64,000 nucleotides of DNA from Squalus acanthias. Its lineage: Eukaryota. Position numbers and translations under genes: made by a program. The stretch is from positions 3,784,001 through 3,848,000 of the forward strand of contig JASTWF010000033.1 in NCBI GenBank assembly GCA_030390025.1. The letters run 5' to 3'. Below the pieces are notes generated by a model that worked only from the letters and a program-made list of their open reading frames with translations, did no database searches and was not told the origin of the DNA. Of this stretch, positions 22,915-60,344 are shown one piece after another; the first letter of the stretch is position 1, and every line of letters starts with the position of its first letter.

Positions 22915-23564
22915 ATAGAACATAGCACATCGAACAAAACAGCACAGTACAGGCCCTTCGGCCCTCGATGTTGTGCCGAGCATTGTCCAAAACCAAGATC
23001 AAGCTATCACACTCCCTATCAATCTGGTGTGCTCCATGTTCTTATCCCATGACCGCGTGAAAGTTCCTAAAGTGTCCGACTCCACTATCACAGCAGGCAG
23101 TCCATTCCAAACCCCAACCGCTCTCTGAGTAAAGTATCTACCTCGGACATCCCTTCTATATCTCCCCCCATGTACCTTACAGTTATGCCCCCTTGTAACA
23201 GCTACATCCACTCGAGCAAATAGTCTCTGAACATCCACTCTATCTATCCCCCTCATCATCTTATAAACCTCTGTTGAGTCGCCTGTCATCCTCCTCCGCT
23301 CTACAGAGACACGCCCTAGCTCCCTCAATCTTTCCTCATAAGACTTCCCACACAAACAAGGCAGCATCCTGGTAAATCTCATTTGCACTCTTCCAATGCT
23401 TCCACGTCCTTCCTACAGTGAGGTGACCAGAACTGAACACAATATTCCAAATGTGGATTCACCAAGTCCTGTACAGTTGCAGCATAACCTCATAGTTCTT
23501 AAACTCAAACCCCTTGTTAATAAACGCTAACACACTATAGGCCTTCTTTACTGCGCTATCCACC
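22915..23564 (-). mobile_element. CR1 3' fragment inside the satellite, copy 1
   Basis: RFTRMLP...SYEERLRELG...TRGH ORF remnant with a CATAGAA-type tail. Confidence 0.9.
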
Positions 23565-29345: not shown

Positions 29346-29996
29346 ATAGAGCATAGAACATAGAACAGTACAGCACAGTACAGGCCCTTCGGCCATCGAT
29401 GTTGTGCCGAGCATTGTCCAAAACCAAGATCAAGCTATCACACTGCCTATCAATCTGGTGTGCTCCATGTTCTTATCCAATAACCGCTTGAAAGTTCCTA
29501 AAGTGTCCGACTCCACTATCACAGCAGGCAGTCCATTCCACACCCCAACCACTCTCTGAGTACAGAATCTACCTCGGACATCCCTTCTATATCTCCCCCC
29601 ATGTACCTTATTGTTATGCCCCCTTGGAACAGCTGCATCCACCCGAGGAAATAGTCTCTGAACAACCACTCTATCTATCCCCCTCATCATCTTATAAACC
29701 TCTATTTAGTCGCCTGTCATCCTCCTCCGCTCTGAAGAGAAACGCCCTAGCTCCCTCAATCTTTCATCATAAGACCTCCCACACAAACAGGGCAGCATCC
29801 TGGTAAATCTCCTTTGCACCCTTTCCAATGCGTTAACGTCCTTCCTATAGTGAGGTGAGCAGAACTGAACACAATATTCCAAATGTGGTCTCACAAAGTC
29901 CTGTACAGTTGCAGCATCACCTCACGGTTCTTAAACTCAAACCCCTTTTTAATGAACGCTAACAAACTATAGGCCTTCTTTAATGCTCTATCCACC
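29346..29996 (-). mobile_element. CR1 3' fragment inside the satellite, copy 3
   Basis: Nearly identical to copy 2 without the SINE. Confidence 0.9.
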
Positions 29997-32900
29997 CCAC
30001 CTCATGTCCTCAGCTCCTCCCCACCCCACCTAATATCCTCAGCTTCTCCCCACCCCACCAAATATCCTCAGCTCCTCCCCACCACACCTAATATCCTCAG
30101 CACCTCCCAACCTCACCAAATATCCTCATTCCTCCCCACCCGACCTAATATCCTCATCTCATCCCCACCCCACCTAATATACTCAGCTCCTCCCCACCCC
30201 ACCTTATATCCTCAGCTCCTCCCCACCCCACCTAATATCCTCAGCTCCTCCCCACCCCACCTAATATCCTCAGCTCCTCCCCAACCCACATAATATCCTC
30301 AGCTCCTCCCCACCCCACCTAATATCCTCAGGTCCCCCCCACCCCACCTAATATCCTCAGCTCCTCCCCACCACACCGAATATCCTCAGCTCCTCCTCAC
30401 CCCATCTAATATCGTGAGCTCCTAATCACCGCACCTAATATCCTCAGCTCCTCCTCACCCCATCTAATATCATCAGCTCCTCCCCACCTCACCTAAAATG
30501 TACAGCCCCTCCCCACCAAACCTAATATCCTCAGCTTCTCCCCATCCCAACTAATATCCTCAGCTCCTCCCCACCTCACCTAATATCCTCAGCTCCTCCC
30601 AACCCACCTAATCACCTCATCTCCTCCACACCTCACCAAATGTCCTCAGCTCCTCCCCACCCCACCTAATATCCTCACCTCCACCCCACCCAACCCCACC
30701 TAATATCCTCAGCACCTCCCCACCCCACCGAATATTCTCACCTCCACCCCACCCCACCCCACCTAATATCCTCAGCTCCTCCCCACCCCACCTAATATCC
30801 TCAGCTCCTCCCCACCCCAACTAATATCATCATCTCCTCCTCACCCCACCTAATATCCTCAGCTCCTCCCCACCCCACCTAATATCCTGAGCTCCTCCCC
30901 ACCCCAGCTAATATCCTCAGCTCCTCCCCACCCCACCTAATATCCTCAGCTCCTCTCCACCCTACCTAATATCCTCAGCTCCACCCCACCTAATATCGTC
31001 AGCTCCTTCCCACCACACCAATATCCTCAGCTACTCCCCACCCCACTTAATATCCTCAGCTCGTCCCCACCCTACCTAATATCCTCAGCTCCTCCCCACC
31101 CCATCTAATATCCTCAGCTCCTCCCCATCCCACCTAATATTCTCAGCTCCTCTCCACCCCACCTAATATCCTCAGCTCCTCCCTACCTCACCTAATATCC
31201 TCAGCGCCTCCCCACCACACCTAATATCCTCAGCTCCTCTCCACCCCACCTAATATCCTCAGCTCTTCCCCACCTCACCTAATATCTTCAGCTCCTCCCC
31301 ATCCCACCAATATCCTCAGCTACTCCCCACCCCAACTAATATCCTCAGCTCGTCCACACCCTACCTAATATCCTCAGCTCCTCCACACACCACCTAATAT
31401 CCTCAACTCCTCCACACCCCACTAATATCCTCAGCTCCTCTCCACCCCACCTAATATCCTCAGCTCCACCCCACTTCACTTAATATCCTCAGCTCCTCCC
31501 CACCCCACCTAATATCCTCAGCTTCTCCCCACCCCACCTAATATCCTCATCTCCTCCCCACCCCACCAAATATCCTCATCTCCTCCCCACCCCACCAAAT
31601 ATCCTGAGCTCCTCCCCACCCCACCTAATATCCTCAGCTCTTCCCCACCCCACCTAATATCCTCAGCTCCTCTACACCCCACCTAATATCCTCAGCTCCA
31701 CCCCACCTAATATCCTTAGCTCCTTCCCACCACACCAATATCCTCAGCTCCTGCCCACCCCACCTAATATCATCACCTCCTCCCCATCCCACCTAATATT
31801 CTCAGCTCCTCCACACCCCACCTCATATCCTCAGCTCCTCCCCACCCCACCTAATATCCTCAGCTCCTCTCCACCCCAACTAATATCCTCAGCTCCACCC
31901 CACCTCACCTAATATCCTCAGCTCCTCCCCATCCCACCAATATCCTCAGCTACTACCCACCCCAACTAATATCCTCAGCTCGTCCCAACCCTACCTAATA
32001 TCCTCAGCTCCTCCCCACCCCACCGAATATCCTCAGCTCGGCCCCACCTCACTTAATATCCTCAGCTCCTCCCCCCCCCACCAAAAATCCTCAGCTCCTC
32101 TCAACCCCATCTAATATTCGCAGCTCCTCCCCACCCCAACTAATATCCTCAGCTCTTCCCCACCCTACCTAATATCCTCAGCTCCACCCCACCTAATATC
32201 CTTAGCTCGTTCCCACCACACCAATATCCTCAGCTACTCCCCTCCCCACCTAATATCCTCAGCTCGTCCCCACCCTACCGAATATCCTCAGCTCCTCCAC
32301 ACCCCACCTGATATCCTCAGCTCCTCCCCACCCTACCGAATATCCTCAGCTCCTCCACACCCCAACTGATATCCTCAGCTCCACCCCACCCCACCTAATA
32401 TCCTCAGCTCCTCCCCACCCCAACTAATAACCTCAGCTCCTCCCCACCGCACCTAATATCCTCAGCTCCTCCCCACCCCACCTAATATCCTCAACTCCTG
32501 CCCACCCCACCTAATATCATCAGCTCCTCCACACCCCACTAATATCCACAGCTCCTCCCCACCCCAACTAATATCATCAGCTCCTCCACACCCCACTAAT
32601 ATCCACAGCTCCTCCCCACTTCACCTAATATCCCCAGCTCCTCCCCACCCCACCTAATATCCACAGCTCCTCCCCACTTCACCTAATATCCTCAGCTCCT
32701 CCCCACCCCACCTAATATCCTGAGCTCCTCCCCACCCCACCTAATATCCTCAGCTCCTCCCCACCCCACCTAATATCCTCAGCTTCTCTGCACACTACCT
32801 AATATCCTCAGCTCCACCCCACCTAATCTCCTCAGCTCCTTCCCACCACACCAATATCCTCAGCTACTCCCCACTCCACCTAATATCCTCAGCTCGTCCC

Positions 32901-34527
32901 CACCCTACCTAATATCCTCAGCTCCTCCCCACCCCATTTAATATCCTCAGCTCCTCCCCATCCCACCTAATATTCTCAGCTCCTCCACACCCCACCTCAT
33001 ATCCTCAGCTCCTCCCCACCCCACCTAATATCCTCAGCTCCTCCCCACCACACCTAATATCCTCAGCTCCTCTCCACCCCACCTAATTTCCTCAGCTCCA
33101 CCCCACCTCACCTAATATCCTCAGCTCCTCCCCATCCCACCAATATCCTCAACTACTACCCACCCTACCTAATATCCTTAGCTCCTCCCCAACCCACCTA
33201 ATATGCTCAGATCGGCCCCACCTGACTTAATATCCTCAGCTCCTCCCCCCCCCACCAAAAATCCTCAGCTCCTCTCACCGCAGCTAATATCCGCAGCAAC
33301 TCCCCACCCCAACTAATATCCTCAGCTCTTCCCCACCCTACCTAATATCCTCAGCTCCTCCCCACACCACCTAATATCCTCAGCTCCTCCCCACCCCAAC
33401 TAATATCCTCAGCTGCTCCCCACCCCACCTAATATCCTCAGCTCCTCCCCACACCACCTAATATCCACAGCTCCTCCCCCACCCCGCCTAATATCCTCAG
33501 CTCCTCCCCACCCCACCTAATATCGTCAGCAGCTCCCCACCCCACATAATAACATCAGCTCCCCCTCACCTTATATCCTCAGCTCCTCCCCACCACACCT
33601 AATATCCTCAGCTCCTCCCCACCCCAACAATATCCTCAGCACCTCCCCACCCCACCAATATCCTCAGTTCCACCCCACCTCACCTAATATCCTCTGCTGC
33701 TCCCCCACCCCACCTAATATCCTCAGCTCCTGCCCACCCCACCTAATATCCTCAGCTCCTCCCCACGCCACCTAATATCCTCAGCTCCCCCCCACCTTAT
33801 ATCATCAGCTCCTCCCCACCCTACCTAATATCCTCAGCTCCTCTCACCCGACCTAATATCCTCAGCTCCACCCCACCCAACCTAATATCCTCAGCTCCAA
33901 CCCACTCCACCTAACATCCTCAGATCCTCCCCACCCCACCTCATATCCTCAGCTCCTCCCCACCCCACCTAATATGCTCAGCTCCTCCCCACCTCACCTA
34001 ATATACTCAGCTCCTCCCCCACCCCACCTAATATCCTCAGCTCCACCCCACCCCACCTAATATGCTCAGCTCCTCCCCACCTCACCTAATATACTCAGCT
34101 CCTCTCCACCCCACCTCATATCCTCAGCTCCTACCCACCCCATCTAATATCGTCACGTCCTCCCCACCCCACCTAATATCCATAGCTCCTCCCCACCCCA
34201 CCTAATATATTCAGCTCCTCCCCACCCCACCTAATATCCTCAGCTCCTCCCCACCCCACCTAATATCCTCAGCTCCTCCCCACGACACCTAATATCCTCA
34301 GCTCCTCCCCACCCCATCTAATATCGTCACGTCCTCCCCACCCCACCTAATATCCTCAGCTCCTCCCCACCCCACCTAATATATTCAGCTCCTCCCCACC
34401 CCACCTAATATCCTCAGCTCCTCCCCACCCCACCTAATATCCTCAGCTCCCCCCACCATGCCTAATATCCTCAGCTCCTCCACACCACACCTAATATCGC
34501 CAGCTGCTCCCAATTCCACCTAATATA

Positions 34528-35552
34528 TAAAGAGAGCGCAAAGGCTCTGTTTGAAGAATGGACTCATTCGACAATATTTTGTGGACTTTATTGGATTTTT
34601 GTGAGGGTATTTTCCCTCTGATGGGATCACCCTGTGTTACTATGTGGAAAACTGGTTTGTTAAAACTCCAGAGAACACATGGCAGATGGCTGTGACAAAA
34701 CAACTGTCAGTCATCCAGAATATGCAAAAACACCTCTCACTTCCATCTGAAATGAGAAGCAGAACAATGAACCCACTGGCATAGCCAGCCGGAGAGGAGC
34801 CCGTTTTGCCCAACACAAAGACTGAGAGATGTCCCAGACTTAGGGCCATTAGTCCAATCATGGAATACTCATGGGTCTGAGGATGACCCATCAATGATTA
34901 AGCACCGTAGTGCTTAGAAACAAAATGATTTTAAAGATTCGCTGGATAGATAGGGTTAGCGAGACTCCTGTAAAGATAGACCCTTTCCCACCATTCTCTC
35001 TCTCGTTCTCGCTGCACCAAGATCGACCTAACAAGAAGACCAGAGGAAGAAGCAGCTAAGTGGAGCGATCGAGACCGACTGCCTGTGGGGGTAATTATGG
35101 TCTCGAGTGTCCCAAACCGGTAACCAGAGTGCTCAGAGTTTTTTCTCAGAAGTGAAGCATTTGGGATATTCCAAGGATGGGAGCTTTGTTTGGTTTAGAC
35201 AGGATAAAAGGGCTTATGCGACTGGGTAATTCATTGGTAGGGCTGGAATTAGAGTCCACCATAGCAATAAGGGAATTGCTGTTGTCATAGTCCTCAGTTT
35301 TGTACTGTATGTATGTTGTTTGTAACCTGGATTTTATTCACCACAGAGGCAGAGATTTCGTTTAGTAGTGAATGTTTAGCCAGTGTATGTTAGACCAAAT
35401 ACATATAAGCTTGAATTTTCACTGAAACATTCCTGTCCGCGACTTATTTCATTTACACTCTGAATAATAATTCCCGGTATAGAACTTTCGAAATGCGGGG
35501 GCGATTCGAACCGTCCATCCAGCAATTGGGCTAGGATCAAACACCACTTACA
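34528..35552 (+). repeat. Outer provirus 5' LTR (~1025 bp)
   Basis: Aligns with 55593-55952 plus 60566-61243; ends CACTTACA directly before the PBS. Confidence 0.9.
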
Positions 35553-35556
35553 TCTC

Positions 35557-37053
35557 TTGGCGACCGCGGCAGGAACTGGGTTAAAGGAGTGTAAATCAGT
35601 CATGGACAGCGCTTCTGGCGAAAGATCCCAAATGGAGGAAAGAATTTCATCATATGTGTTTAAGAAGGGTAACGTCACTAAGAAGTGTGTGCTAGGCTTG
35701 TTGCGGTCTGAGCGTCCGGTGGACGCAGCGTTAGAATGGACGGAGGGCAAGGACCATAGGCGCAGCATTGAAAAGGCGATATTACCCGTCTGTCTGCAAA
35801 GACAAGTCCAACTGCTAGATAAGCAGGTTGCCAAGTTAGAGGCAGAGATCAGGGACTCCGAGGCACATTCAGATGCAAGGGCTGCAGTAGGGAGCAGGTT
35901 ATGCACGGAGTTAAGGGATGAGAAGCAGGGAAGAATAAGCCCGGAGAAAACCTTCCGTAATCATAAGGAGTTCCTGCAATGCCAGGTAACTGAGGCAAAG
36001 TGGAACGAGAGAGTGGTTAGGGAGGAGAACGCTCGCTTGTCGAGTGACTTAAAGGTGCTGGGAGAGCAGTTGAAGGATATTCAGGTGGCATACAGAGTCG
36101 CCAGCACTAGGGGGTTTGATAAAGGTAATCATGGTCCTGGCCAGGAGCAGATCCGGAATTCGACCGATGCTCTATCTCAGGCCAAAGGGATGGTCTGCTT
36201 GGTAGCTCCGGGAATGGCCCGGGTAGATGAGGAAGAGCAGGAGGGAGATAAGGAGGACTGTGAGGCAGAGGAGGACGCTCGACCACCGCCCGAAGTGCCG
36301 GGACCAGGACCCATGTGCCCTGTCCGGCAGCGGAAATAGGGTGCGCCCGTAGACGGTCAAGAGCAAGGAGCACTGCAGAGTGACTTCGTGATCCCGTATA
36401 CGACCCCCAGCTGCAGGCAATGGTCTCCAACCTGACCAAACTGACCAGCAAAGGGGACCCATCTGTCCATTTTACGGATGTGGAGCAGTTGGGGGGAATC
36501 AATAATTGTAACGAAGCTGAGACAGACAAATTACTTTTATTTTCCCAGGATAGTAGGTTGTACCAGTCGCTCTCAGCGGGTAGCAAGAGGGGGCAGGGTA
36601 CGTTAGAGGGGATAAAGGATGACATCCTAAAGGCAATGGTCCTCAATGATGGAAGTCCCTTCTTTCGTGTGGAAAGGATACTACAGTCAGCTGGGGAGGC
36701 ACCACAGGCTTCCGCGGACAGGCTTGGGCCCATCTACCGGAGTGCCTGTGCAGGGGTGCCCGACCGGGCGCAGCTGCAGGGGGAGCCTAGGACTCATTGG
36801 CTGAGGACCCTGGTGGTGAACAGCCTGCCCAGGATCAAGGCCAAAGCAGAGGGATGGTTCGATTCCAGGGATCCGCAGACCACAGAAGAGAGTGTGATCC
36901 GGCAGTTAACGATTTCTTTTAAGAATGGGAGGGGTGAGGATGACAAACCAAAGGGCAGAGTACACGAGTTAAAGCCTAGTGGAGGCAACGTTAGAAGAGA
37001 GTGGCGCCAGGAATGGTGTAGCTCAGAGAAGAAGCAGGGTTGTTATGGGTGCG
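35557..37053 (+). pseudogene. gag: Outer gag, 5' part (coiled-coil N region + capsid-like region); stop at 36337 and a frameshift; continues at 46285-46511
   Basis: Clearly homologous to the inner gag (YVF.K.N.TKK, GDPSVHF..VEQ...IN.C, THWLR..V.NSLP, KGRVHE). The zinc knuckle CYGC|GSKGHWRKDC is split by the inner element. Confidence 0.88.
35558..35574 (+). promoter_or_regulatory. Primer binding site (tRNA-Arg(UCG)-like), outer provirus
   Basis: TGGCGACCGCGGCAGGA is complementary to the vertebrate tRNA-Arg(TCG) 3' end ...TCCTGCCGCGGTCG-CCA (tRNA sequence recalled, not searched). Confidence 0.8.
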
Positions 37054-38665
37054 TGTAGAATTCGCAATATATCGCGATTTTATTAATAAGGAGAAAACAC
37101 AGAGTTTCGTTCGGACAGCTTTTGTTTCAGCGGAATGCTGACAGGTTTAAAGTGGACACAAGCGGCCTGTGGGGTGGCCGCCGCACCTCGTGACAGAACA
37201 TTCTGGACTTTTCAACGGGCAGACAGGATAGCGTTCCAATGGACATTTGTGTAGGATCGATTGGGATTCAGCACAGTGAAGATAGTACACGAGACATTAT
37301 GGGTTTGCAGTATACACATAAATACTGAAATCGGTCTCCCAGGTACAAATGAAAGCCATTGTACCGAGTAATCAAGGGCCCATCCAGGGGACATTAATAT
37401 GTAAAATCCCAACGACTCTACGATGAGAGAGCCGTTGGCAGGTAGTTGTGCAAGACACTTGGAAGCCCCAGGACCCCTCCGGGGAGAACACCGACCGATT
37501 TAACAATGGGAGAAATATTGACAGGTGCTCAGACATTTACGAGTAGCCCCGAAGCCCATTGGGAGCGGAGATCACCCATGCGGGACATTTGAGTGCCAGA
37601 CCCTAAACAAAAGAATGGACATTATAGTTGGGCGGGAAACGGAAGATTTTGCACTATAATTGCAGGCTCCAAACCGTCCATCTTTCTCTTATCCGATCGA
37701 TTCGTAACCTCGTGGCTGCTCCTGTGTACTCGTAGCTGGGCTCCTGCTTGCCTGTTGCCTCTTTTGAAAAGGACTGTTGAACTTTCTGATCCGTTCGGAT
37801 CTACCTCGTGTCGCGTAATGAAGACCTATATTGGTAACCGGTATCGGAACCAAAGGCCCGAGAAGAGATGAGATGAGATGAGATGGGAAGAGACGAAGAC
37901 CATACTTATCGCCACGGTCAGTAAGCCCCGACCGCGCCTGTAGGTCGAATTGACATTTTCCTTGCCAGGAAGACTTCTTCGAAAGAACGGACACCGGGAA
38001 ATTCTTTTCTTAAGTATTGACTGGAATGTGAAAACCACCAATACAGATCTTCATCACAGCAGACGGTCCGGCCTGCTAGCCGGAGCAGCAGAAGCAAGTA
38101 AACAAGTGGGACCAGGAGATCTCCTGACCGACACGTGGGTGCTGCGGTGAAAAACATCCGATCAGCTATTCGGAATTTCTCCGAGTTATCACGAGTGGTG
38201 AGCATGAGTCTCGAAATCCTACGAATCTAGTTTAGGATAGATATTGATAGGGGAGGGTTTAAGGATTAAGGATATTTGTAATGTGTGCCCCTATTTACTA
38301 TGTGCCGTTCGTTCCTCGTTTCCCTAAGATCGACTATATAACTGTTTGTAAGATTGTACTGTCATTAATCTGTGCTTATGACATGTATTTCATAATCTTA
38401 AGTATCATGCAATAAAGATTTTCCATTTCGTACCATTCAACCGAGTCTACATGAGTTTCATCTCCATTACTGCTCTCGCATCTAAGTCCAGTGTCTAGAA
38501 CCGTAAGGGCGAGTGATTCGAACCACTCACAGGTGTGTCTAGTGTTCCCAGACTGGCTGGAGACCAGAACAGGCAACAAGACCTAGACCCGCACTGACAT
38601 ACAGGCTGCACAGAGCCGCGTGAATCTCACAGGCTGCGAGACACGCAGGGTCAGAATCCCTTACA
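37054..38665 (+). repeat. Inner 5' LTR (1612 bp); AATAAA at 38411-38416
   Basis: Direct repeat of 44669-46280 with about 5 substitutions seen by eye. Confidence 0.97.
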
Positions 38666-38669
38666 GAAA

Positions 38670-40481
38670 ATGGCGACCGCGGCAGGACACTGGCAGCGAG
38701 AGGGTAGTGTGTTAGACTTTGGAATGACTGTACGAAATGTTATGCAGGAAAAGATAGCAGATTATGTGTTTGGAAAGGTTAATCTAACTAAGAAATGGAT
38801 AAGTGAATTGTTAGCGGATAAAAGCCCGTTAGAGGCAGCCGAAAGGTGGACAGATAGTAAAGAACATAGAAAGACACTTGAGAAAGCAGTCTGGCTTATG
38901 TGTTACAAAAGGCAGGTTCAGATTTCAAACCAGACCATTACAGCGCTAGTAGCCCGAATCAGTCATTTAGAGGGAGAAATGGATGAGCAGGTTTATGGAG
39001 GGGAGGTGCTCATTAAGAATTTAAATGAGTTACACCAAGAAAGCCAGGAAGTCTCCAGTCACCTTAAAACAAGGATAGATTATCTCGAGTGCCAGGTCAC
39101 TGAGGCGAAGGTGAATGAGAGCAGGTTAAAGGAAAGATGTAACCGCCAAGCTGCCCAGATAAGAACTCAAGAAGAGAGCTTAACGGGGGTTAGGGCGGCA
39201 TATAAGTTGGCCCTTGAGGATAAGTTTGAGGGAGCCGACCATAGTGCCTGCCAAAGGGAGATAGAGCACCTCAAGAAGGCCGTAAACAAAGCGAACGGCA
39301 TGGTGTGCCTTATCAGTCCGTCAGCACACCAGCCGTTAGTAAGTGAGAAGTTTAAGAAATCCCCACCAAGCAAAGCAGAAGAAGTAGTAGCCACTGCGCC
39401 CTCCGCGCCACCCAGCTATTCGGAAACCTGGGTTAGGGAGGAAGCAATGGAAGAAACAAAAGAGCCCATTGAGAAAGAAGTATGAAAGGGACCGTTGTAT
39501 CCAGTAACGGGCATTAAAAGGGGCCCAAGCAGAAACGGTGGGGAAGAACCGGGGGATCTCCTCGGACAGCTGGTGTTGCCTCACAGTTCACATCAGCTGA
39601 GAGCTATGATAAATCACGTACGGAAGCTGACCGAGTCAGACGACCCTTCCGTACATTTCAGAGAAGTTGAGCAAGCCGCAGCCATTAACGGCTGCGATGA
39701 TGGGGAAACAGCAAAAATGCTGCTGTTCTCATTAGACAGCTCGGTCCTTCAGTGTCTCTCAGGCGAGAGCAAGAGGGGAACCAAGAGTTATGAGGAATTA
39801 AAGAATGAGGTCCTGGAAGTGTTGGGGGCGAACGATGAAGGTCCGTTTGCTAGAGTGGGACAGACAGTGCAGATGGAGGGAGAACCCCCGAAGGTTTTTG
39901 CCGACAGGCTGTGGCCAGTATATGAGCGCAGCTGTCTAGGTGCGCCCGAGCGCGAAGATGTGGAAAGCTTAGCTTTAACTCATTGGCTTAGGTGCATAAT
40001 AGCCAACAGTTTACCAGCCGTCAGAGAGCAGGCAAAAGCATGGTTTGATCCCAATGACCCCAACATTACGGAAGAGTCGGTCTTGAATCGACTCACGTTA
40101 GGATATCACAATATAAGGGGTATGGCAACACGTCCCCTTAAGGGAAGAGTACATGAGGTACGACCCGCAGCCCCGTATCAAAGAGAGTGGCATCAGGAGG
40201 GTAATCGCACCCCACAGGCAGGTAATGCTTGTTACGGGTGTGGGAAGACAGGGCACTGGCGCAAGCATTGCAGGAACCCTTGGAAGGATTCCAAGGATAA
40301 AAATCCCGCGGTCCGAGCCCAGGCGCCTGTCCCGGCTAAGGAAGCTAAGGCACCCACCCCTCCCGACGACCTCGAAGTAGTGTTAGGAGCCATGCGCAAT
40401 CTAATCTTGAGTGCACGTGGACAGGTGGCGGTCGCAACCGGCCCCGTAGGTGCCGCAGGACCGTCTAATAGTACCCAATGA
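38670..40481 (+). pseudogene. gag: Inner gag (~600 codons) with a single in-frame TGA at 39483-39485
   Basis: ORFs 38670-39485 and 39495-40481 share a frame; coiled-coil N region, PSAPPSY late-domain-like motif, capsid-like region and CCHC knuckle CYGCGKTGHWRKHC. Confidence 0.9.
38671..38688 (+). promoter_or_regulatory. Primer binding site (tRNA-Arg(UCG)-like), inner provirus
   Basis: TGGCGACCGCGGCAGGAC, 18 nt, 5 nt downstream of the LTR; same PBS as the outer element. Confidence 0.85.
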
Positions 40482-41603
40482 CTAGAGCCCACGCAGCCTG
40501 CCTACCTGTGTCTTTTTAAAAGACACGCACAGGAGGGGGTCTGCGGTGAGGAGGCCAGGTTAAAAGAGCAGGCCTTGCGGGAGGAGAACGCCCGCTTAAT
40601 AGGGAAAATAGATGGGCTGGAAGGGCAGCTTAGAGAGCAGGCCCTGCGGGAGGAGAACGCCCGATCAATGGGAAAGTTAGACGTGCTCAGGCTAGAAGCG
40701 CAGCTTAGTGAGATAAAAGCAGCCTACAGGGTAGCCAAAAGCCGGGAGTATGAGGATGTAAACCAATGCAAACTGTACCAGCCAGGTGCGCAAGGGAAAA
40801 CTACAGGGGTAAATCCCGCCAACGGGAAAGCACAGCCCCAGGTAGGACCACAAGGCACACAGGCAGGCATAGCAGCTTGCATCAGGGGAAGGGACATCCC
40901 GGACGATCATGCAGCGTTTTTCTGGAATTGGGGGTAAGATGAGGAAGAATTCAGGGTACCCGGGTCTGATGAGGATAGTGCAGATGAGGATAGCGATGAC
41001 GACGGGTGGTTTCGGAGGAACGGTCCCTTTTACGATATGGAAGGGACAGGGGCTGCAGGTAGAGATCCACACAGGGTGGACACACGAGCTGCAGGTCCCG
41101 AAGACAGGAGGGAGGAGCTAGGGGAGGCGGGGCCAGCCGCTATGGGAGCACAGAGAGTACCGGTGTGGCTCCCAGAGATGTGGCCGCCCGCTTTGAACGT
41201 CCCGTCCTTGGGGGAGGCGGAGATCACGAGTGAAGGGCCGCCTGCTGGGCCGAGCAGGGCGGGGCCACAAACTGCAAGCCCCGAGGTTAGGGAGGCGGAG
41301 TCAGCGGAGGCGGAGCCAGCGACTGTGATGGAACCCCAGGTCATCCCGATGGAAGTCTCGGAACCCGGTCCGTCCGTCACGGAACCCCCGCCCATAGCAA
41401 CTCCCCGTAGGTCAAGTAGAGAACCCCAGCCCAGGAGGATGTGGTCATGTCCCCAGACTGCCCCAAGGCGTAGAGTTAAGGTTAAGATAACCCAGATACA
41501 GGCCGGCCACATCGCGGCAGCAACAGGCTGCGGCAGATCGGAGGGAAGTGTCAGTGCCCTCCCACCGTCGGGAAGAGCTCGCAGCAGCCTTCTCAGAATT
41601 TAA
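40482..41603 (+). other. ORF-X: ~373-codon non-enzymatic frame in the pol position, in frame with gag, with one internal TAA (40935-40937)
   Basis: Translates LEPTQPAYLC...REENARL...REENARS...AAYRVAKSR...WNWG*DEEEFRVPGSDEDSADEDSDDDGWF...RRSSREPQPRRMW...; ORFs 40575-40937 and 41037-41603 are both in the gag frame. Confidence 0.7.
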
Positions 41604-41866
41604 AGGGGCCGCCCTGAGAACGGGCGGCACTGTAAAGTTATTAGTTTTAAGTTTTAAGTAAATAGTTCAAGGTTAAGTTTGTAGTGTTTTTAACAGAAAA
41701 CGATAAAATGATGGGAGCTTTAAAGATAGGTTTAGTTAAAGTTTATTCAGCGAACGTTGAAGTTTACGTGAGGCGAGGTCAGGGGACCCGCTCACCCTTC
41801 ACAAAAGCCAGAGACTCTTGCGAGGCTGGCTACCTCATTCTATCTGATCACAGGAACCAAGGAAGG

Positions 41867-44218
41867 ATGGAACGAATTCTAGTATTGCTCGTGGCAATCG
41901 GATGTGGATTGGCCTATCGAGGCCGCACCAAGGATGTCGTGGTGTTTGGATGTTCCGGGGATGCGGCCCCCATCGCGGTGGATGGGACCGGAAGACGGGA
42001 GGCAGAGGAGACCAGCACCTATTTCCACAAGGGAAGGTGGCCAGGATGGCTAGGAACGAACTCAACGGAGTATTCTAGCACATCGGGGTTTGCCTACAAA
42101 GAGACTTCTTTACTGTGCCCCAAAGTAAGGATCATCGCACCCAGGATCAGCGTCACCGTCGGCAAACGGATTTGTTTGACTTGTAGTGGGAAGGTCCCAT
42201 TGAGCCGATGGTGGTGGCTGCGAAAGCTGAGCAAAACTATGAGGAACTCTTCGGTCGAGTGGGAACGACTGGGTAATAATACCCATCGGACAATTACGGG
42301 GACAAACGGACAAGTGAAAGTCTGTTGGGACAAATGGTGGGAACCGGACGAGGGAATTTATGTATGTATGTGGGGGTCAAAGTACGTTTGCCCCAAAGGC
42401 ATCTCCATATTTTTCATTAATCAATGGCAGGATAACGGACAGGGGATGAGGTGGGATGCGAGCACCAGGGGGTGCGGAGCCCCATTCTCCCCGATCCCAG
42501 TAAATGCCACTGAGCTCATTGCGCGCCCACGCAAAGCCCCGCCCACGATTCCGGTGGTTCTAGCTAAGGAAGAAGGGTGCCCTAAAACTAGTAAGGGACC
42601 CGGGAATGGTTTGGTACTGGTCCCCACAGACCAGATACTATTTCAGGGAGTACATTACGCGGTGGCCTCGGTGATTTTAAATCTCACCGAGGTGCGGTTA
42701 CCAGAGTGGTGCCCCAAATAGACGGAACAGTTGTATCAGGTCCTGTTGACCAAGATGTTCAGACAATTTTACGAATTCGATTTCGCGGAAATTGATAAAA
42801 CAAGTTTGTACACTGCACCACAGGAAGTTTTGAATCAAGCAGGGAGGCAAAGAAGGGGTTTGGTGAACGATGCGTTCACTGCTTTTAACACAGGTACATC
42901 TGTGGTCAACGCTCTAGACAGTGTGGAGCTGCAGACCCAGATTAATGGTTTAAAGACACAATTAAAAGACATTCTAACAGATGAGAATAAAGTGGTAGGG
43001 TCGGGTCTACACGAGGACCAAGCCATGACTCTCCATTTAAAGGAAATTATAGCAGAGTTGGAGAAACATGCAAAGACGGTAAATGCCCTGATTAGGGAAG
43101 ATCGGAATGCATCCGACCAAGCTGCGCAGAACGAGGTGTGCGTGCTTTACGGGGCGTGGTTACTGGGCGAGGGCCGCAGTAATTTGGAGGATTTAAAACA
43201 AGGTTTGGTTCCGTCCTGGATAAGTAACAAACACCTGCGGGCGCTCCACCCTTTTCAGAACGCATTAAGTCCGTGCCAGCTCAGGCTAGCTTCAGAAGCT
43301 TACCCAGTCCCCGTGGACTGCGGACGTTCAAACCATACTATTATGGGAATAGTATTACGTATGCCGGTTTTGGGCGACACAGCAAAGCCCGCCCCGGTGT
43401 ATCGGGTAGAGAACATTGGTGTCATTCAGGGGGGAGCCCACATTCGTTATGCAGCGGTTCCACCTTACGTCATCCGCTGGGAGCAAACGATGACAGGTAC
43501 AGATCTCTCTGGTTGTCGTGGCAGGGGAGCACACATAATACTGTGCCCCCAGCACTTGAATGCCTTTTTAACACCACAGTGCGGGTTCAGAACGACTGGC
43601 GCCAAGTCCATGAATTGCACCATGGAGGCAATGGCACAAGATCATGTGCCTCCGCAGGTAGCATACATCGGGGGTGGAACATATTGTGTTACCACTGCAG
43701 CGCAACACTACCAGCATGGAAACCGTAGCCGGTGTCCGGTGAGTGACAGCAGTTTCTGTTTTAAACCCAGGGCGGAAGTTCAAGTAGCACAACAGCGAAT
43801 TATCCCAATCCCTGAACCATCCACTGTTCATCTCACAGTAAAAGAGAATTTCACCGACTTGCAGCGATTCGTCGCGCATTTTGGATACCTCATTCCCCCT
43901 CTCCCTGAACACCTCACCAAACTTTTAAAAGCCGTCGCGGTGTCACAGAAACATTTTTACACATTAGAACAGAAAACTGTCGAAATAGGAACAGACATTT
44001 TGGATATAGTAGTTCCACCGTGGTGGAATCTGTTCACCAATATTGAAGTGCCTTCATGGATCAGAATAGCCTCCTACATTTTAGTCGTATGCCAAGTGTT
44101 TATTGTAGTGTACCTATTGGTCGTACATTGTAAAAGAGACAAACGCCTCACTAAGCATGAAAACACGGGAGAGTGGCGAGAACGTTACGTGCGCGTGCAC
44201 GATGAAAGCACCGTGTAA
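41867..44218 (+). pseudogene. env: Inner env (783 codons): signal peptide, Ig-like domain, furin site, class I fusion module and TM anchor; single in-frame TAG at 42719-42721
   Basis: MERILVLLVAIGCGLA signal; RQRR|GLVNDAFTAFNTGTSVVN at 42845 onward; heptad ELQTQINGLKTQLKDIL; Cys-rich region; TM IASYILVVCQVFIVVYLLVV; candidate splice acceptor ...CTGATCACAG ending 41853. Confidence 0.9.
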
Positions 44219-44659
44219 TCGGAAAATGGCGTCACTCCCGCTCGCCACGTGCGTCGCGGAAGTTTGTACTCGATCATGATTTTCAGAGATTGTAAATACG
44301 TTGGGAACTCGACATGTTTTAAGAGTTGGTGTTGATTATTTTGGTGATGGTGTTACAGTTAGAATTGATTGTTTGGTTTTGGGTTTTGTTTTTCCTTTCC
44401 CTGAATAAAAGATGAATATACAGGTGATACGAGAGGCATCGGCCTGGTTACGCCGGGAAGGAAAACAAGTGGTGTAAGTTTAAGGGCAAATAATGCCTAC
44501 GGTGATATAAAATGTAATTTTCTTGGGAAATAAGGACGACACAGAGACCCTAGTTAGGTTAAAGTTATGGGATTAATTTGCTGGATTCGGAGAGAAATCG
44601 AGATAATATTGCTCACCACTATGATTTTTGATACGATAAGCGGAGTTATTCGCATCAAC

Positions 44660-44668
44660 AGGAGGGAC
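44660..44668 (+). promoter_or_regulatory. Short polypurine tract before the inner 3' LTR
   Basis: AGGAGGGAC|TGTAG; the outer element has GGGGGAC|TGAAG at 55586-55592. Confidence 0.75.
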
Positions 44669-46280
44669 TGTAGAATTCGCAATATATCGCGATTTTATTA
44701 ATAAGGAGAAAACACAGAGTTTCGTTCGGACAGCTTTTGTTTCAGCGGAATGCTGACAGGTTTAAAGTGGACACAAGCGGCCTGTGGGGTGGCCGCCGCA
44801 CCTCGTGACAGAACATTCTGGACTTTTCAACGGGCAGACAGGATGGCGTTCCAATGGACATTTGTGTAGGATCGATTGGGATTCAGCACAGTGAAGATAG
44901 TACACGAGACATTATGGGTTTGCAGTATACACATAAATACTGAAATCGGTCTCCCAGGTACAAATGAAAGCCATTGTACCGAGTAATCAAGGGCCCATCC
45001 AGGGGACATTAATATGTAAAATCCCAACGACTCTACGATGAGAGAGCCGTTGGCAGGTAGTTGTGCAAGACACTTGGAAGCCCCAGGACCCCTCCGGGGA
45101 GAACACCGACCGATTTAACAATGGGAGAAATATTGACAGGTGCTCAGACATTTACGAGTAGCCCCGAAGCCCATTGGGAGCGGAGATCACCCATGCGGGA
45201 CATTTGAGCGCCAGACCCTAAACAAAAGAATGGACATTATAGTTGGGCGGGAAACGGAAGATTTTGCACTATAATTGCAGGCTCCAAACCGTCCATCTTT
45301 CTCTTATCCGATCGATTCGTAACCTCGTGGCTGCTCCTGTGTACTCGTAGCTGGGCTCCTGCTTGCCTGTTGCCTCTTTTGAAAAGGACTGTTGAACTTT
45401 CTGATCCGTTCGGATCTACCTCGTGTCGCGTAACGAAGACCTATATTGGTAACCGGTATCGGAACCAAAGGCCCGAGAAGAGATGAGATGAGATGAGATG
45501 GGAAGAGACGAAGACCATACTTATCGCCACGGTCAGTAAGCCCCGACCGCGCCTGTAGGTCGAATTGACATTTTCCTTGCCAGGAAGACTTCTTCGAAAG
45601 AACGGACACCGGGAAATTCTTTTCTTAAGTATTGACTGGAATGTGAAAACCACCAATACAGATCTTCATCACAGCAGACGGTCCGGCCTGCTAGCCGGAG
45701 CAGCAGAAGCAAGTAAACAAGTGGGACCAGGAGATCTCCTGACCGACACGTGGGTGCTGCGGTGAAAAACATCCGATCAGCTATTCGGAATTTCTCCGAG
45801 TTATCACGAGTGGTGAGCATGAGTCTCGAAATCCTACGAATCTAGTTTAGGATAGATATTGATAGGGGAGGGTTTAAGGATTAAGGATATTTGTAATGTG
45901 TGCCCCTATTTACTATGTGCCGTTCGTTCCTCGTTTCCCTAAGATCGACTATATAACTGTTTGTAAGATTGTACTGTCATTAATCTGTGCTTATGACATG
46001 TATTTCATAATCTTAAGTATCATGCTATAAAGATTTTCCATTTCGTACCATTCAACCGAGTCTACATGAGTTTCATCTCCATTACTGCTCTCGCATCTAA
46101 GTCCAGTGTCTAGAACCGTAAGGGCGAGTGATTCGAACCACTCACAGGTGTGTCTAGTGTTCCCAGACTGGCTGGAGACCAGAACAGGCAACAAGGCCTA
46201 GACCCGCACTGACATACAGGCTGCACAGAGCCGCGTGAATCTCACAGGCTGCGAGACACGCAGGGTCAGAATCCCTTACA
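44669..46280 (+). repeat. Inner 3' LTR (1612 bp)
   Basis: Direct repeat of 37054-38665. Confidence 0.97.
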
Positions 46281-46284
46281 TGCG

Positions 46285-46511: not shown

Positions 46512-48614
46512 CTGGGGTCTTCTCAGCCCGTTTACCTGTGCCCACTAAGTTATGATGCTTGGAAGGGACTGTGCGTGAAGATGGGGGTGGAGAAGGTGCA
46601 AGGGACCTATCTGCTGGACACTGGAGCTTCAAGCACCGTTGTCTATGCGGATAACCCGACCACATCACCTCTATCGAATGGGGTCCCATATAACTTAGTA
46701 GGGTTCACCGGGAACGAACAGGCTGGGTCTTTCTCCATCCCACTACCCATCGATCTGGCTACACTCTGTACGGAGTGGATGTGTGTCCGGATGCGGTGGG
46801 AGCGGGAGGGAATAGGCATTTTGGGGGCAGACTTCATACTGGCCCACAAGATATTGGTGGATTTCCGGAATCACTGTCTTTGGGAGGCAGTGTGCACGGG
46901 GAAGGAGAAGGAGGTGATAGTTATACCAGGGAAGCAAGGCAAGGGAACCGTGTGTACGATGAAGCCCAAGGATAGTTATGACCTTGAACTTTTGGTCACT
47001 TCTACCCCGGCGGAGTACATAGCAGATGTGCGAGCCAACCTCGCGGCATTCGCTACACAGAAGCACGACTGTGGGAGGGTAATAGGGGTGGAGTTCAGAG
47101 TAGAAGGAGACCCCATGGCCAGACCACAGAAACAGTACAACTTCCCCAGATAGGCAGAGGCAGATTGAGAGACGGCTTTGGGACCACTGGTTGAGCAGGG
47201 TGTGTTGAGACCCATAGCGACCCATGTGAACTCTCCGATTTGGCCAGTTAGGAAACTGGACAATTCGTGGAGAGCCACTGTGGACTATCAGGTTCTTAAC
47301 AAGAACATCCTAGGCCTGTGCCCCCACCATTGCAGCCATAGCCGACCTGATCGGGATTATCACGGCATTCGCGAAAACATTCACAGTGCTGGACATTTCG
47401 AACGGATTCTGGTCTATCCCTCTCAAAAGGGAGGACCAGTATAAATTCGCATTTACTTTCAAGGGTCAGCAGTACACATGGACCTGCCTCCCCCAAGGGT
47501 TTCATAACAGTCCTTCTATTTTCCACCAATATATGGCCAACTGTTTAAAAGGGTTCAGCAGACAGCAGCGGCTTGTACAGTACGTGGACAACTTGCTCTT
47601 GTTCTCCAACGAGGGGGAGGAGCATGGCCCCCTGCTGGCTGAGCTTCTGAGTCTGTTAAAGGAAGCTGGGTTCAAGGTTAATCCCAAGAAAGCACAGATC
47701 GGCCAGCAGGACATAAACTTCCTCAGGCTGACCATACGTGCTGGGGAGAGGGCCATCGATGAGGCGAAAAGGAAGGCGGTACAGGAGCTACCTGCCCCGA
47801 CCACGATAACGGAGGTAAGATCCTTCCTGGGACTCACAGGATATTGCAGGGATTTCATAGAGGACTATGCCGCTACGGCAGCTCCTCTACTCCGGCTCCT
47901 TCACAAGGGAGTGGGATGGGTGAGGGATGAGGACTGCATGGCAGCTTTTAGTCGTCTGTAGAGAGATTTGCAGACCGCAGCGGCTTTAGGAGCGTTGATG
48001 GGGGGAAGGAGTTATTTTTGGAGGTAGCTGCCACAGGGGAGAGTTTGAGCGCAGTGCTGCTCCAGGAGCGGCATGGCAAGCTAAGGCCTGTGGTATACTC
48101 ATCAAGAATCCTCACAGATGTAGAGAGGGGGTACTCCAATTGTGAGAGGCACCTGCTTGCCACACATTGGGCCGTGAGGAGATCACAAATCTTCACGGTG
48201 GTGTCCCCGTTAACTCTCTTAACCCATCATTAGCCCACTCAGATGCTTCTGGATGGGAGGATAAAGGACGGCACGGTGAGCAGTGCACGCATTGCTCGCT
48301 GGACTTTATTGCTCTCTCAAACAAATTTGAGAGTGAAAGGCCTCTGTGAGCCCAAGCTCGCCGCAAATTTGATCTACCCAGGGGTGGCCAAAAATGTTCT
48401 GTTGAAGGGGTATGGGACGTAGAAATAGGGTTTCGGGCTGGGATCCATGTAGACGGGCCCAGTACAGTGGTGGCAGGGGAGCAACTCACTGGAAGCAGGA
48501 TTTTTGACCCAAAGGCAGGCAATGCCAAGGCTTTTACACTCCCGAGCACCATGAGCGCCCAGCAAGCTGAACTGTCGGCGGTGGTGTATGTGGTTACTCA
48601 CCCCGAAGTGTACC

Positions 48615-50832: not shown

Positions 50833-52277
50833 TACGTAGTACCATTATTCAAGAAGGGTGGTAGGGATAAACCAGGGTTATTACAGGCCATTGAGCCTAA
50901 CATCAGTGGTAGGGAAATTATTGGAAAACATTCTGAGGGACAGAAATAGTCTCCACTTGGAGAGGCAAGGATTAATTAAGGATAGTCATCATGGCTTTGT
51001 CAGGGGGAGATCATGTCTGACCAATTTGATTGAATTTTTAGAGGGGGTGACTAGTTGTATGGATGAGCGTAGTGCAGTTGATGTAGTCTACATGGACTTC
51101 AGTAAGGCATTTGACAAAGTCCCGCATGGGAGACTGGTCAAGAAGGTAAAAGCCCATGGGATCCAGTGCAACTTGGCACATTTGATCAAAAATTGGCTTA
51201 GTGGCAGGAGGCAGAGGGTGTTGGTCGAAGGTTGTTTTTGTGACTGGAAGCCTGTGTCCAATGGTGTACCGCTAGGATCGGTGCTGGGTCCTTTGCTGTT
51301 TGTAGTGTACATTAATGATTTAGATATTAATGTAGGAGGTATGATCAGTAATTTCGCAGATGACACGAAAATTGGTGGGGTGGTAAATAGCGAGGAGGGA
51401 AGCCTCCGGCTACAGGATGATATAGACGGGTTGGTTAGATGGGCAGAACAGTGGCAAATGGAATTTAACCCTGGGAAGTGTGAGGTAATGCATTTTGGGA
51501 GGACTAACAAGGAAAGGGAATACACAATGAATGGTAGGTCCCGAGGAAGGACAGAGGATCAGAGGGACCTTGGGGTGCATGCAAATAGATCCCTGAAGGC
51601 AGCAGGACAGGTTGATAAGGTGGTTAAAAAGGCATATGGGAAACTTGCCTTCATTAGCCGAGGCATAGAATATAAGAACAGGGAGGTAATGATGGAGCTG
51701 TACAAAACGGTAGTTAGGCCAAAGCTGGAATACTGTGTGCAGTTCTGGTCGCCACACTATAGGAAGGATGTGAGTTCATTGGAGAGGCTGCAGAAGAGAT
51801 TCAACAGGATGTTAACTGGGCTGGAGCGCTTCAGCTATGAAGAGAGACTGGACAGGCTGGGGTTGTTTTCCTTAGAGCAGAGAAGGCTGAGCGGGGACCT
51901 GATTGAGGTGCACACAATTATGAGGGGCATAGATAGGGTAGATAGAAAGGAACGTGTCCCCTTAGCAGAGGGGTCAATATCCAGGGGGCATAGTTTCAAG
52001 GGAAGGGGCAGGAGGTTTAGAGGGGTATTGAGGAAAATCTTTTTCACCCAGAGTGTGGTTGGAGACTGGGACTCACTGCCTGAAAATGTGGTAGAGGCAG
52101 GAACCCTCACAATATTCAAGAATTATTTAGATGAGCACTTGACACGCCACAGCATACAAAGCTACGGACCAAGTGCTGGAAAATGGGATTAGAATAGACA
52201 GGGCTTGAAGGCCGGCGCGGACACGAGGGGCCGAAGGGCCTCTTTCTGAGCTGTATAACTCTATGACTTTATGACTC
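50833..52277 (+). mobile_element. 5'-truncated CR1 (family C) inserted upstream of the integrase; RT frame 50858-52192 still open
   Basis: RT motifs with FADD; (CTATGACT)n tail; TSD TAAA at 50829-50832 / 52278-52281; removal restores pol ISVKEGMVFRGEQWAVP. Confidence 0.93.
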
Positions 52278-53806
52278 TAAAGGAAGGGATGGTTTTCAGA
52301 GGGGAACAGTGGGCAGTTCCGCAGCAGCACCGGAGAGAATTCCTTCAGTTGGCCCACGAGGGTCCAGGAGCGGGTCACCCCAGGCCGGAGACCACCTGGC
52401 AATGGGTGGAACAGGCAGGGTGGTCGCCGCAACTGAGGGAGGACGTCCGCGACTTCTGCGCGGATTGCTTGGTGTGTGCTGCAAACAACCTTGACCCCCA
52501 AAAAAGAAAGGTATCCATGGGACACAGTCGGAGAGTGGAGGGACCATGGCAGTCCATACAGGTCGATTATATCGGACCGCTGCCCACCGCGCAGGGGGTT
52601 ACAAATACTGCCTGGTCCTGGTGGATGTGTTCTTTCAATGGGTAGAAGCCTTCCCATGCCGAACAGCCACAGCTTTGTGGACCGCAAGGATTCTAGTGAG
52701 AGAAGTGTTCTCTCGAATACCACGGTATGTGGAGTCCGATCAGGGGATTCACTTCACATGTGTGTCATGCAGGCGACTCTGAAGATGCTCGGTGTAGAGG
52801 GTAAATGGCACGTCGCACACAACCCGCAGTCATCGGGGATTGTGGAGCGGATGAATAGGACCATCAAGGAAAGGTTACGGAAGGAGACGGGAGACTCGCC
52901 TAGAAAATGGGCGGAGGTTTTGCCGTTAGTTCTGATGGGGGTCTGAGCCAGCCCGTCTAGAAGCACAGGGCATTCCCCGCATGAGCTCGTGACTGGCAGG
53001 GTCATGAGGACGCCCAGCCATGTACTGGCCCCGGTTCTCACGGAAGGTCAGTTGAGAGAGGTGAACCGGGACAGGTTTGTTAAGAATTTATTTGAGCATC
53101 TCAGAAAGATCCATTGGCAGGCTGCCAGTAACATTGGGAAGCAACATCGTAGAAATCGCTTATTGCTTGAGCCTCAGAGGCAACACGAGTGGAAGGTCGG
53201 AGATCAAGTAATGGTTAGAAACTTCTCCAGGGTAGGGACTTTTGAACCGCTATACATGGGACAGTACAGTATCGTGGATATTGCAAGTCCGATGGTATAT
53301 GCGATCAAAATGCCTCGACGCACTAAGTGGTTCCATATCAATCAGTGCAAGCTTTTCAACCCTGGGGAAAGAGCTGATAAGAGGAGGAAACAGCAGGGAG
53401 TGGTGAGCTGCGCTACAGGTGTGGGTCTCCAGCCAATAATCTGGGACTGTGAGGAGCCCACAGAGGGACCAGTCGTTCCGTCTGTGGGGGCAGGAGTGAG
53501 AAGGAGTGCCAGGATCCCACAGCCGAGGGAGCCGTGGACGCCTCCTTACACACCGTTGAACGAAGGAAGCCGGAGTCGTAATAGGCTCAGGGTCGAGGAG
53601 ACCTAGTGTGGCCACCCGGAGACTGGTGGCGCTGTACATAACTTCTTTCTCTCCTGTCTGTTGCCTTAGCTTGTCTGTATAGTTTGGATTTACATGTATG
53701 CTGTGGATACCAAATGTAATCGTGTGTAGCTGCGTCTGGAAAGGTGAGGAATCACCCAAGGACAACGTTGCATTCTGTGTCTTTTCAGAGAACGCCTAAG
53801 AACAAG

Positions 53807-55952: not shown

Positions 55953-56190
55953 ATAAGAACATAACAACATAAGAAATAGGAGCAGGAGTAGGCCAATCGG
56001 CCCCTCGAGCCTGCTCCGCCATTCAATAAGATCATGGCTGATCTGATCCTAACCGCCAATCTACTATCTTTCACAGAACCATCTCCTGCATCTAACAGAA
56101 TTGCACACACGAAATAGGAGCAGAATCAGGCTACACGGTCCCTGGGCCCGCTCCACTACCCACAGGGCCATGACCGATCCGAACCTAGAC

Positions 56191-59142: not shown

Positions 59143-59180
59143 TTTTATTTTTTGCTCTCTTGAAACCTCCCCCCCACTAA

Positions 59181-60137: not shown

Positions 60138-60344
60138 TCTATGTAATTAATTAAAAATGTATTATTTACCCTTCAGTTAATTTATGCCAGCAGTCTCTGC
60201 TACACCACAGATACCCGAGAAACAATAAAATTGAAGTTTTGTATAAAAAAAAAGAAATACTCACCAACCAATCACTTACCTGCTTTCTGGTGACGTCACA
60301 CTTCGATTATTTTTTACCTCTCTCCTGCTCTCGGCTTGGTGAAA

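Follow-up and report, generated by a model that had tools for sequence, protein, structure and literature searches.

How a retrovirus that carries no enzymes can multiply in a genome, and whether the reading frame found in place of those enzymes is a new gene, are the questions raised by a locus of the cartilaginous fish Squalus acanthias (assembly GCA_030390025.1, contig JASTWF010000033.1, positions 3,784,001 to 3,848,000). Within this stretch of 64,000 nucleotides (the window, from the first base of which all positions are counted), the element at 37054-46280 retains its long terminal repeats (LTRs), gag and env and is without pol; directly behind gag, and in phase with it, lies an open reading frame that we call ORF-X. 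The reading that we favour, with a probability of roughly 0.6, is that 37054-46280 is one recent insertion of an abundant, young, pol-less retroviral lineage, and, at that same probability, that this lineage is helper-dependent, having lost its enzymes and kept gag and env, and comes under the known pattern of trans-complemented endogenous retroviruses (ERVs). Below, S denotes the pol-less lineage including the window copy, and F denotes pol-bearing relatives in the same genome. The parts of the element, all on the forward strand, are:

37050-37053, + strand: 5' copy of the target-site duplication (TSD), TGCG; the same four bases stand behind the 3' LTR
37054-38665, + strand: 5' LTR, 1612 bp, TG...CA ends, 99.69% identity with the 3' LTR
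38671-38688, + strand: primer-binding site (PBS), an 18-mer beginning 5 nt past the 5' LTR and overlapped by the gag ATG at 38670
38670-40481, + strand: gag, with an N-terminal coiled-coil region, a capsid-like part and a CCHC knuckle at 40230-40271
40479-40485, + strand: gag stop TGA followed by CTAG; TGA in 30 of 30 aligned copies, and the same context before pol in relatives
40482-40512, + strand: ORF-X part 1, about the 10 first Pol codons; homology with F ends at 40512
40513-40757, + strand: ORF-X part 2, a 245-nt filler of 82 codons that replaces 3617 nt of protease, reverse transcriptase (RT), RNase H and integrase of the relatives
40758-41603, + strand: ORF-X part 3, the Pol C-terminal tail with an acidic patch and a Pro/Glu-rich stretch; homology with F past the integrase SH3-like domain
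41604-41707, + strand: spacer ahead of env, AT-rich short repeats of variable length; 23-52 extra bases in all 29 other aligned copies
41708-44218, + strand: env, 836 codons, with a furin-like RQRR at 42845-42856 and a membrane anchor near 44057-44137
44654-44668, + strand: polypurine tract (PPT) region, a short purine run adjoining the 3' LTR
44669-46280, + strand: 3' LTR, 1612 bp, pairing with the 5' LTR
46281-46284, + strand: 3' copy of the TSD, TGCG, matching the 5' copy

Paired TG...CA LTRs, a short TSD, a PBS, a PPT, a zinc-knuckle gag and a cleavable, anchored env mark the element as a provirus. A preliminary description of the locus, made from its letters, had listed near-identical LTRs, PBS, PPT, TSD, gag and env, and each of these could be located (the LTRs, 1612 bp each, show 5 mismatches and 0 gaps; the TSD is TGCG). 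The PBS presumably fits tRNA-Arg. The first residues of Gag are encoded by the PBS itself (38670-38690), and the model of a skate Gag-like protein starts near-identically. Skate Gag-like proteins are 53-55% identical to the Gag of the window copy, and protein relatives of the element were found only from skate and sawshark; against solved structures, this Gag gave sub-threshold nucleocapsid matches only (E 0.07 or worse). At the end of ORF-X, just upstream of the spacer, CCTTCTCAG resembles, and may be, a 3' splice site.

A single frame, 38598-41603, spans gag and, directly behind its TGA, the 373 codons of ORF-X (40482-41603), which in the window copy contain one internal stop at codon 152; this in-phase frame had been described before and was recovered unchanged, as was the match of its two ends to the pol start and the integrase tail of an older provirus that surrounds the element. 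The claimed lack of protease, RT, RNase H and integrase also stood. In Pfam searches of the six inner ORF pieces none of these domains was found (6 of 6), the sole match being a weak coiled coil that stays below threshold (19 bits against a cut-off of 31.9), and in tblastn with the 1266-residue Pol of an F relative only the first 10 residues and the C-terminal end match the S element. An apparent tblastn match at Pol residues 1167-1243 was rejected as an extension out of the shared tail.

The pol-less layout belongs to a lineage and not to a single copy, as the preliminary description had proposed. A 28-mer across the S-specific 5' junction, with up to 2 mismatches allowed, has 1056 matches in the genome, with 0 for its reversed control; a genome search with ORF-X returned 3274 first-look candidates, and 40 of the 40 matches scored are full length at 97-98% identity. 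A 28-mer at the gag stop has 1588 matches, some pol-bearing relatives included. The dispersed copies with distinct TSDs that had been anticipated were also found: three of three other evaluable copies have 4-bp duplications of their own (AGTC, GTGC and GGGA; the 3' edge of a fourth copy was missed), such that, with the window copy counted, four of four differ in both TSD and flanks. At the window copy itself, in-silico excision of the S element together with one TGCG leaves the zinc-knuckle gag frame of the outer provirus uninterrupted again, which indicates a clean, integrase-type insertion. The filler that is specific to the family also occurs in short contigs of sequencing runs bearing other organism codes, and in two such runs contigs bridge the 5' junction of S.

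An alignment of 30 copies, covering ORF-X and 1.5 kb to either side, shows how intact the lineage is. ORF-X is open in 27 of the 29 other copies (27 of 30 with the window copy counted), in keeping with what had been foreseen, and the frame is undisrupted in 25 of 30 copies for each of two gag pieces and in 22 of 30 for the 5' part of env. The three premature stops of the window copy, in gag (39483-39485), ORF-X (40935-40937, codon 152) and env (42719-42721), are unique to it among the 30. It carries 23 private changes in 4.1 kb relative to its 29 siblings, and the 3 nonsense changes among them are somewhat above the ~1 expected; at the ORF-X stop, every contig of the three sequencing runs that cover the site has another letter. 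No splice joint showed up in the contigs of the four runs compared.

Tandem arrays were seen for both lineages. Matches to the gag stop of S lie ~7.7 kb apart, three consecutive on one contig (C1), and pairs of ORF-X matches lie 7.6-7.7 kb apart on four contigs; pol-bearing F copies lie 12.4 kb apart, three consecutive on another contig. The proviruses in tandem share LTRs.

What could have supplied the missing enzymes? A pattern search for the gag-stop context followed 70-100 bases on by the protease motif DTGA gave 26 matches in the genome. Ten such F loci were read, with gag 75-90.5% identical to that of the window element; the similarity between S and F stops at 40512 in nine of them and at 40500 in the tenth, a locus with a deletion. 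F junction 28-mers have 2171 matches on the 5' side and 2058 on the 3' side. One F provirus was read completely (12,653 bp, LTRs 98.5% alike): it is 89.5% identical to S over 37054-40512 and 90.5% over 40758-46280, and between the two matching blocks it carries 3617 nt that S is without. Its gag and pol lie in one frame with a single stop between them, the arrangement of read-through Gag-Pol expression of the gamma- and epsilonretrovirus type, and its Pol matches RVT_1, RNase H, the integrase zinc-binding domain, rve and an SH3-like domain, with a weak protease match; the best solved relatives are Ty3, the RTs of xenotropic murine leukaemia virus-related virus and murine leukaemia virus (XMRV/MLV), foamy virus protease-RT and prototype foamy virus (PFV) integrase. 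Pol-bearing loci with an S-type gag end account for 202 matches, two of which were read and are 83-86% identical to S.

S and F are the same over the first 25 nt and the last 8 nt of the LTR, over the 40 nt past the 5' LTR, which include the PBS, and over the 40 nt before the 3' LTR, which include the PPT. The sequences that RT and integrase must recognise are thus shared. With enzymes absent, cis-matched relatives present in the genome and dispersed copies bearing their own TSDs, S has the hallmarks of a non-autonomous morph. The search for pol-intact elements sharing the LTR, which the preliminary description had recommended, therefore gave a divided answer: the termini are identical, and the closest element read is only ~90% identical.

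Comparison with F also reveals of what ORF-X is composed. Codons 1-10 are the start of Pol, codons 11-92 are filler, and codons 93-373 (281 codons) are the C-terminal tail of the F Pol. Pol was followed through this tail in four more pol-bearing copies, and in all four it stays in frame up to the stop that also ends ORF-X; the completely read F copy has two private one-base deletions in the tail, and 35 of 39 other matches to the same span are two bases longer than it. Because the tail is read in the same frame in F, the acidic patch and the Pro/Glu-rich stretch of ORF-X are those of an ordinary Pol C-terminus. The preliminary description had taken ORF-X for a novel Gag-fused accessory protein that replaced pol. 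That view has to be given up for the 281 of 373 codons that are normal Pol tail; only 82 codons are new, and these are gag-like. It was right, on the other hand, that this is not a simple deletion, since the gap holds 245 nt of foreign sequence.

The filler contains an internal 30-nt repeat, its units 69 nt apart. Translated in the ORF-X frame, it aligns to the N-terminal coiled coil of the outer-provirus Gag with a z score of 9.4 (a score reached by 0 of 500 shuffles), and to a skate Gag with a z of 5.7 (0 of 500); for the element's own gag the z is 5.0 (1 of 500), and the local alignment to a second skate Gag was not significant. The filler thus probably derives from the gag of a related virus, from the part encoding the N-terminal coiled coil, an origin that is probable and not proven because coiled coils can inflate alignment scores. 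Three other sources were considered and rejected: a copy of the relative's pol, for which blastn and tblastx against the complete F provirus gave chance-level matches; a copy of the element's own gag (BLASTP E 0.31); and capture of a host gene in the manner of a transducing retrovirus, the filler aligning to Gag coiled coils, Pfam giving only the sub-threshold coiled-coil match, and no protein homologue being found at E <=0.01 among candidates of near length.

A rare second pol-less form shares this history. One locus on another contig has the same 5' junction and filler at ~87% identity and joins the filler, again in frame, to Pol ~209 bases further upstream, thereby retaining the integrase SH3-like part; the junction 28-mer of this form has 5 matches in the genome. 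Since it carries the same filler, the filler predates the present burst.

In the single-sequence model of ORF-X, residues 20-95 form a helix (block-mean predicted local distance difference test score, pLDDT, of 76-95 over residues 21-90), and the rest has pLDDT <50 with a few short stretches at 50-70, the tail being predicted disordered; the modelling that had been suggested as a test of the novel protein thus yielded one helix plus disorder. No homologue was found among 8000 scored candidates, all of near length, and an atlas search was uninformative (best score 0.81).

Selection separates gag and env from ORF-X. Within S, ratios of non-synonymous to synonymous polymorphism (pN/pS) were computed pairwise, with copies that have indels in the region under study dropped, leaving 23-30 of the 30. 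The ratio is 0.20 for the first gag piece, 0.27 for the second and 0.26 for the 5' part of env. For ORF-X it is 0.60 overall: 0.57 for codons 1-150, 0.48 for codons 153-300 and 1.32 for codons 301-373. Between S and F, the ratio of substitution rates (dN/dS) is lowest for env, at 0.14; gag stands at 0.37 and the ORF-X tail at 0.91-0.99. Gag and env are therefore clearly maintained as working genes in the pol-less lineage, and ORF-X is at most weakly constrained. The expectation that ORF-X would evolve at dN/dS<1 holds for its overall value within S, and fails for the tail against F and for codons 301-373 within S.

These observations suggest the following history. S would descend from a virus of the same clade with a complete gag-pro-pol-env set, in which ~3.6 kb encoding protease, RT, RNase H and most of integrase was exchanged for 245 nt, most likely through a template switch to the gag of another, related virus. 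The cis elements that a helper needs (LTR ends, PBS and PPT) would have been retained together with the particle genes gag and env. Being without all enzymes, S must rely on those of enzyme-bearing relatives. Its RNA and its Gag would enter particles holding the Gag-Pol of F expressed in the same cell, and the protease, RT and integrase of F would then process, copy and insert S, yielding the 4-bp duplications. The helper/satellite pair put forward in the preliminary description thus stands in so far as pol-bearing relatives exist whose LTR ends, PBS and PPT are the same as those of S; trans-complementation of S by F is what we infer from them. The fact that env has been retained under selection suggests spread by reinfection, as opposed to a purely intracellular cycle.

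In the same scheme ORF-X would be a remnant of pol, made as an extension of Gag upon read-through of TGA-CTAG. The UGA CUAG context reportedly favours read-through (bioRxiv 10.1101/2021.04.18.440353), which makes low-level production of Gag-ORF-X probable. In S, the 100 nt after the stop fold with a z score of -2.4, as compared with +0.6 in F and -0.3 in the outer provirus, and a read-through pseudoknot behind the S gag stop is not demonstrable by folding. Most likely, ORF-X has no dedicated protein function and is a by-product, the open frame of which would be due mainly to the youth of the lineage and to its descent from in-frame junctions.

Several points weigh against this account. No helper closer than about 90% identity was found among the 12 F loci read by gag, of >2000, and with that sampling the true helper may lie among the loci that were not read. 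What we propose for the mobilisation, read-through and expression of S is deduced from genome sequence alone. The remaining points hint that it may matter for ORF-X to stay in frame. Where S and F differ in net length within the tail, the frame is intact. Both of two independent 3' junctions are in frame as well; this hints at an advantage of an open read-through frame but does not prove it. Shared variants in ORF-X comprise 36 non-synonymous, 21 synonymous and 0 nonsense changes when read in frame, as compared with 40/11/6 and 37/14/6 in the two off-frames; the in-frame excess of synonymous changes has a Fisher p of 0.045 for shared and 0.014 for all variants, the off-frames not being independent. 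The 0 nonsense changes among the 57 shared variants compare with 2.1-2.4 expected (P 0.09-0.12, not significant).

Such points are what one would expect if ORF-X were a selected Gag-fused protein, composed of an extra Gag-type coiled coil and a Pol tail, that places S RNA and Gag into helper particles in cis. The open frame in 27 of 29 other copies, the pN/pS values of codons 1-150 and 153-300, the synonymous excess and the two different in-frame 3' junctions all speak for it, as do the reading of the filler in the very frame that resembles Gag and the confidently modelled helix; there is a precedent in the gag-pol fusion of the mouse intracisternal A-particle (IAP) 1Δ1 (PMC6466679). Yet three quarters of ORF-X evolves at a dN/dS of ~0.95 against F, codons 301-373 exceed 1 within S, the tail is predicted disordered, and the variant counts are small, with 18 shared in the helix part. 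Openness, moreover, fits the youth of the copies alone: of the 30 copies, 3 are disrupted in ORF-X, 5 in each gag piece and 8 in the 5' part of env. We regard a selected protein as unlikely. Its fullest form would make S a true satellite virus of a retrovirus, long-lived, ~10% from any helper found, and provided with a captured coiled coil and Pol tail that dock it into helper particles in cis; this we hold to be doubtful in like measure. If it were so, S would compete with its helper and be a parasite of a parasite.

It may instead be the open frame itself, and not the protein, that is kept. Ribosomes reading through the gag stop would travel 1.1 kb towards env, clearing decay factors and shielding the unspliced RNA from nonsense-mediated decay (NMD). 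This would account for a frame that stays open while its amino acids drift, and for TGA-CTAG being kept in 30 of 30 copies with no enzyme behind it; read-through does remove decay factors, and the read-through element of Moloney murine leukaemia virus (MoMLV) protects reporter transcripts (PMC10141005). For S, however, the idea is pure inference, the stop context may have been kept through the youth of the lineage alone, and the deficit of nonsense variants does not reach significance, and we consider it improbable. That S multiplied mainly by tandem or segmental duplication of DNA, or arose by a one-off deletion without any helper, is very improbable indeed: arrays with ~7.7 kb spacing exist, three copies in a row on contig C1, but the 1056 junction matches lie across many contigs, four of four evaluable copies differ in TSDs and flanks, the LTRs of the window copy differ at just 5 sites, and the purifying selection seen within S on these two particle genes, gag and env, points to replication by way of particles. 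We thus retain the helper-dependent lineage with a by-product ORF-X as the preferred reading.

A model of the Env of an F relative, built from 27 aligned sequences (mean pLDDT 56.7), is confident over residues 300-375 and 480-710 and matches the fusion proteins (F proteins) of paramyxoviruses and pneumoviruses, with an E of 1.2e-11 for 1ztm. The fusion part of the model has the F-protein-like fold, and N-terminal beta strands at residues 150-220 are of low confidence. By sequence, Env gave only a chance-level immunoglobulin-domain match to solved structures (E 0.59), and neither it nor any of the 27 aligned homologues matches PF00523 at E <=0.01; one homologue has a weak Baculo_F match (E 0.0011). 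The Env of lokiretroviruses has likewise been compared to paramyxovirus and pneumovirus fusion proteins, there on the grounds of sequence similarity to the PF00523 fusion glycoproteins (PMC7947760), whereas the Env described here matches by fold alone, without a PF00523 match. In the portion of that paper available to us, neither "shark" nor "cartilaginous" occurs (PMC7947760).

The S element was inserted into an older, related provirus, of which these parts could be located:

34530-61244, + strand: older, related pol-bearing provirus hosting the insertion, with LTRs, PBS, gag, RT pieces, integrase tail and truncated env
35464-37053, + strand: gag of the outer provirus, resuming at 46281
35558, + strand: PBS of the outer provirus
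47314-47961 and 50840-52192, + strand: RT pieces of the outer provirus
about 53300-53552, + strand: integrase tail of the outer provirus
53819-55024, + strand: truncated env of the outer provirus, followed by a 3' LTR split by a long interspersed nuclear element (LINE)

The outer PBS equals the S 18-mer except for the last bases. A LINE fragment lies within the outer pol at about 48.4-50.4 kb on the minus strand, and the LINE that interrupts the outer 3' LTR is 4.6 kb long (55953-60571) with apurinic/apyrimidinic endonuclease (APE)-RT and esterase-like ORFs. Elsewhere in the window, a 360-codon open frame at 12826-13908 (+ strand) matches the rhodopsin family of seven-transmembrane receptors (E 4e-19) and lies directly 3' of LINE endonuclease and RT frames at 9902-12805. 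Two tandem arrays were noted, one at 1-6800, its period some multiple of 18 bases and its self-similarity ~80%, and one at about 22300-34000 formed by a 29-bp satellite over ~11 kb.

If the preferred reading is correct, S extends the pattern of trans-complemented ERVs from mice, cattle and koalas to a cartilaginous fish, and to viruses of a clade whose Env is F-protein-like, and it does so in a less common flavour, in which only the enzymes are lost and the capsid and envelope genes stay under purifying selection over ~1000 young copies. With ~1000 S and ~2000 F junction matches, the genome offers natural material for asking which genes a dependent retrovirus must keep, and the S/F pair also bears on whether leftover read-through frames gain a role. 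For annotation it holds a warning: what looks like a "new gene", long and open, in a deleted provirus may be the tail of pol. The S family was not found in those parts of the literature on shark ERVs, pol-less ERVs, IAP fusions, lokiretroviruses and read-through or NMD that were available to us; it may still be published.

Among known systems, the chicken EAV-HP elements are an ERV group with pol deleted and env retained; they are low-copy and have a truncated gag. No gag-derived filler or read-through ORF is known from them. The non-autonomous elements IAP 1Δ1, ETn/MusD and VL30 are described in PMC6466679. IAP 1Δ1 is like S in being a deletion form of an ERV with a gag-pol fusion frame, non-autonomous, moved by full-length relatives and present in many copies; unlike S, in which env is under purifying selection and no enzymes remain, it is without env, keeps much of pol and is intracellular. 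A cis role for the fusion protein has been demonstrated for IAP 1Δ1 (PMC6466679) and is a proposal only for S. ETn with MusD, and VL30 with MLV, are like S in that the non-autonomous LTR element has its termini in common with a coding-competent ERV on which it depends (PMC6466679); ETn and VL30 have essentially no retroviral coding sequence, whereas S supplies its own Gag and Env.

In layout, S is like elements in which a central segment has been swapped for a piece of another retroelement with the flanks kept, as described for bovine ERVK, koala recKoRV and mouse MusD/ETn (PMC10924933). In the D-type elements of bovine ERVK[2-1-LTR] and in recKoRV, as in S, the centre of a competent provirus is exchanged and the LTRs stay in place together with the flanks in gag and env. 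The defective morph spreads by trans-complementation beside the competent one, as is proposed for S, and defective forms can out-compete competent ones (PMC10924933). The D-type elements have no intact genes, whereas the gag and env frames are full-length in most of the S copies read. S differs further from the bovine and koala cases in that its filler is just 245 nt long, in frame and gag-like, in that its host is a cartilaginous fish and not a mammal, and in its F-protein-like Env.

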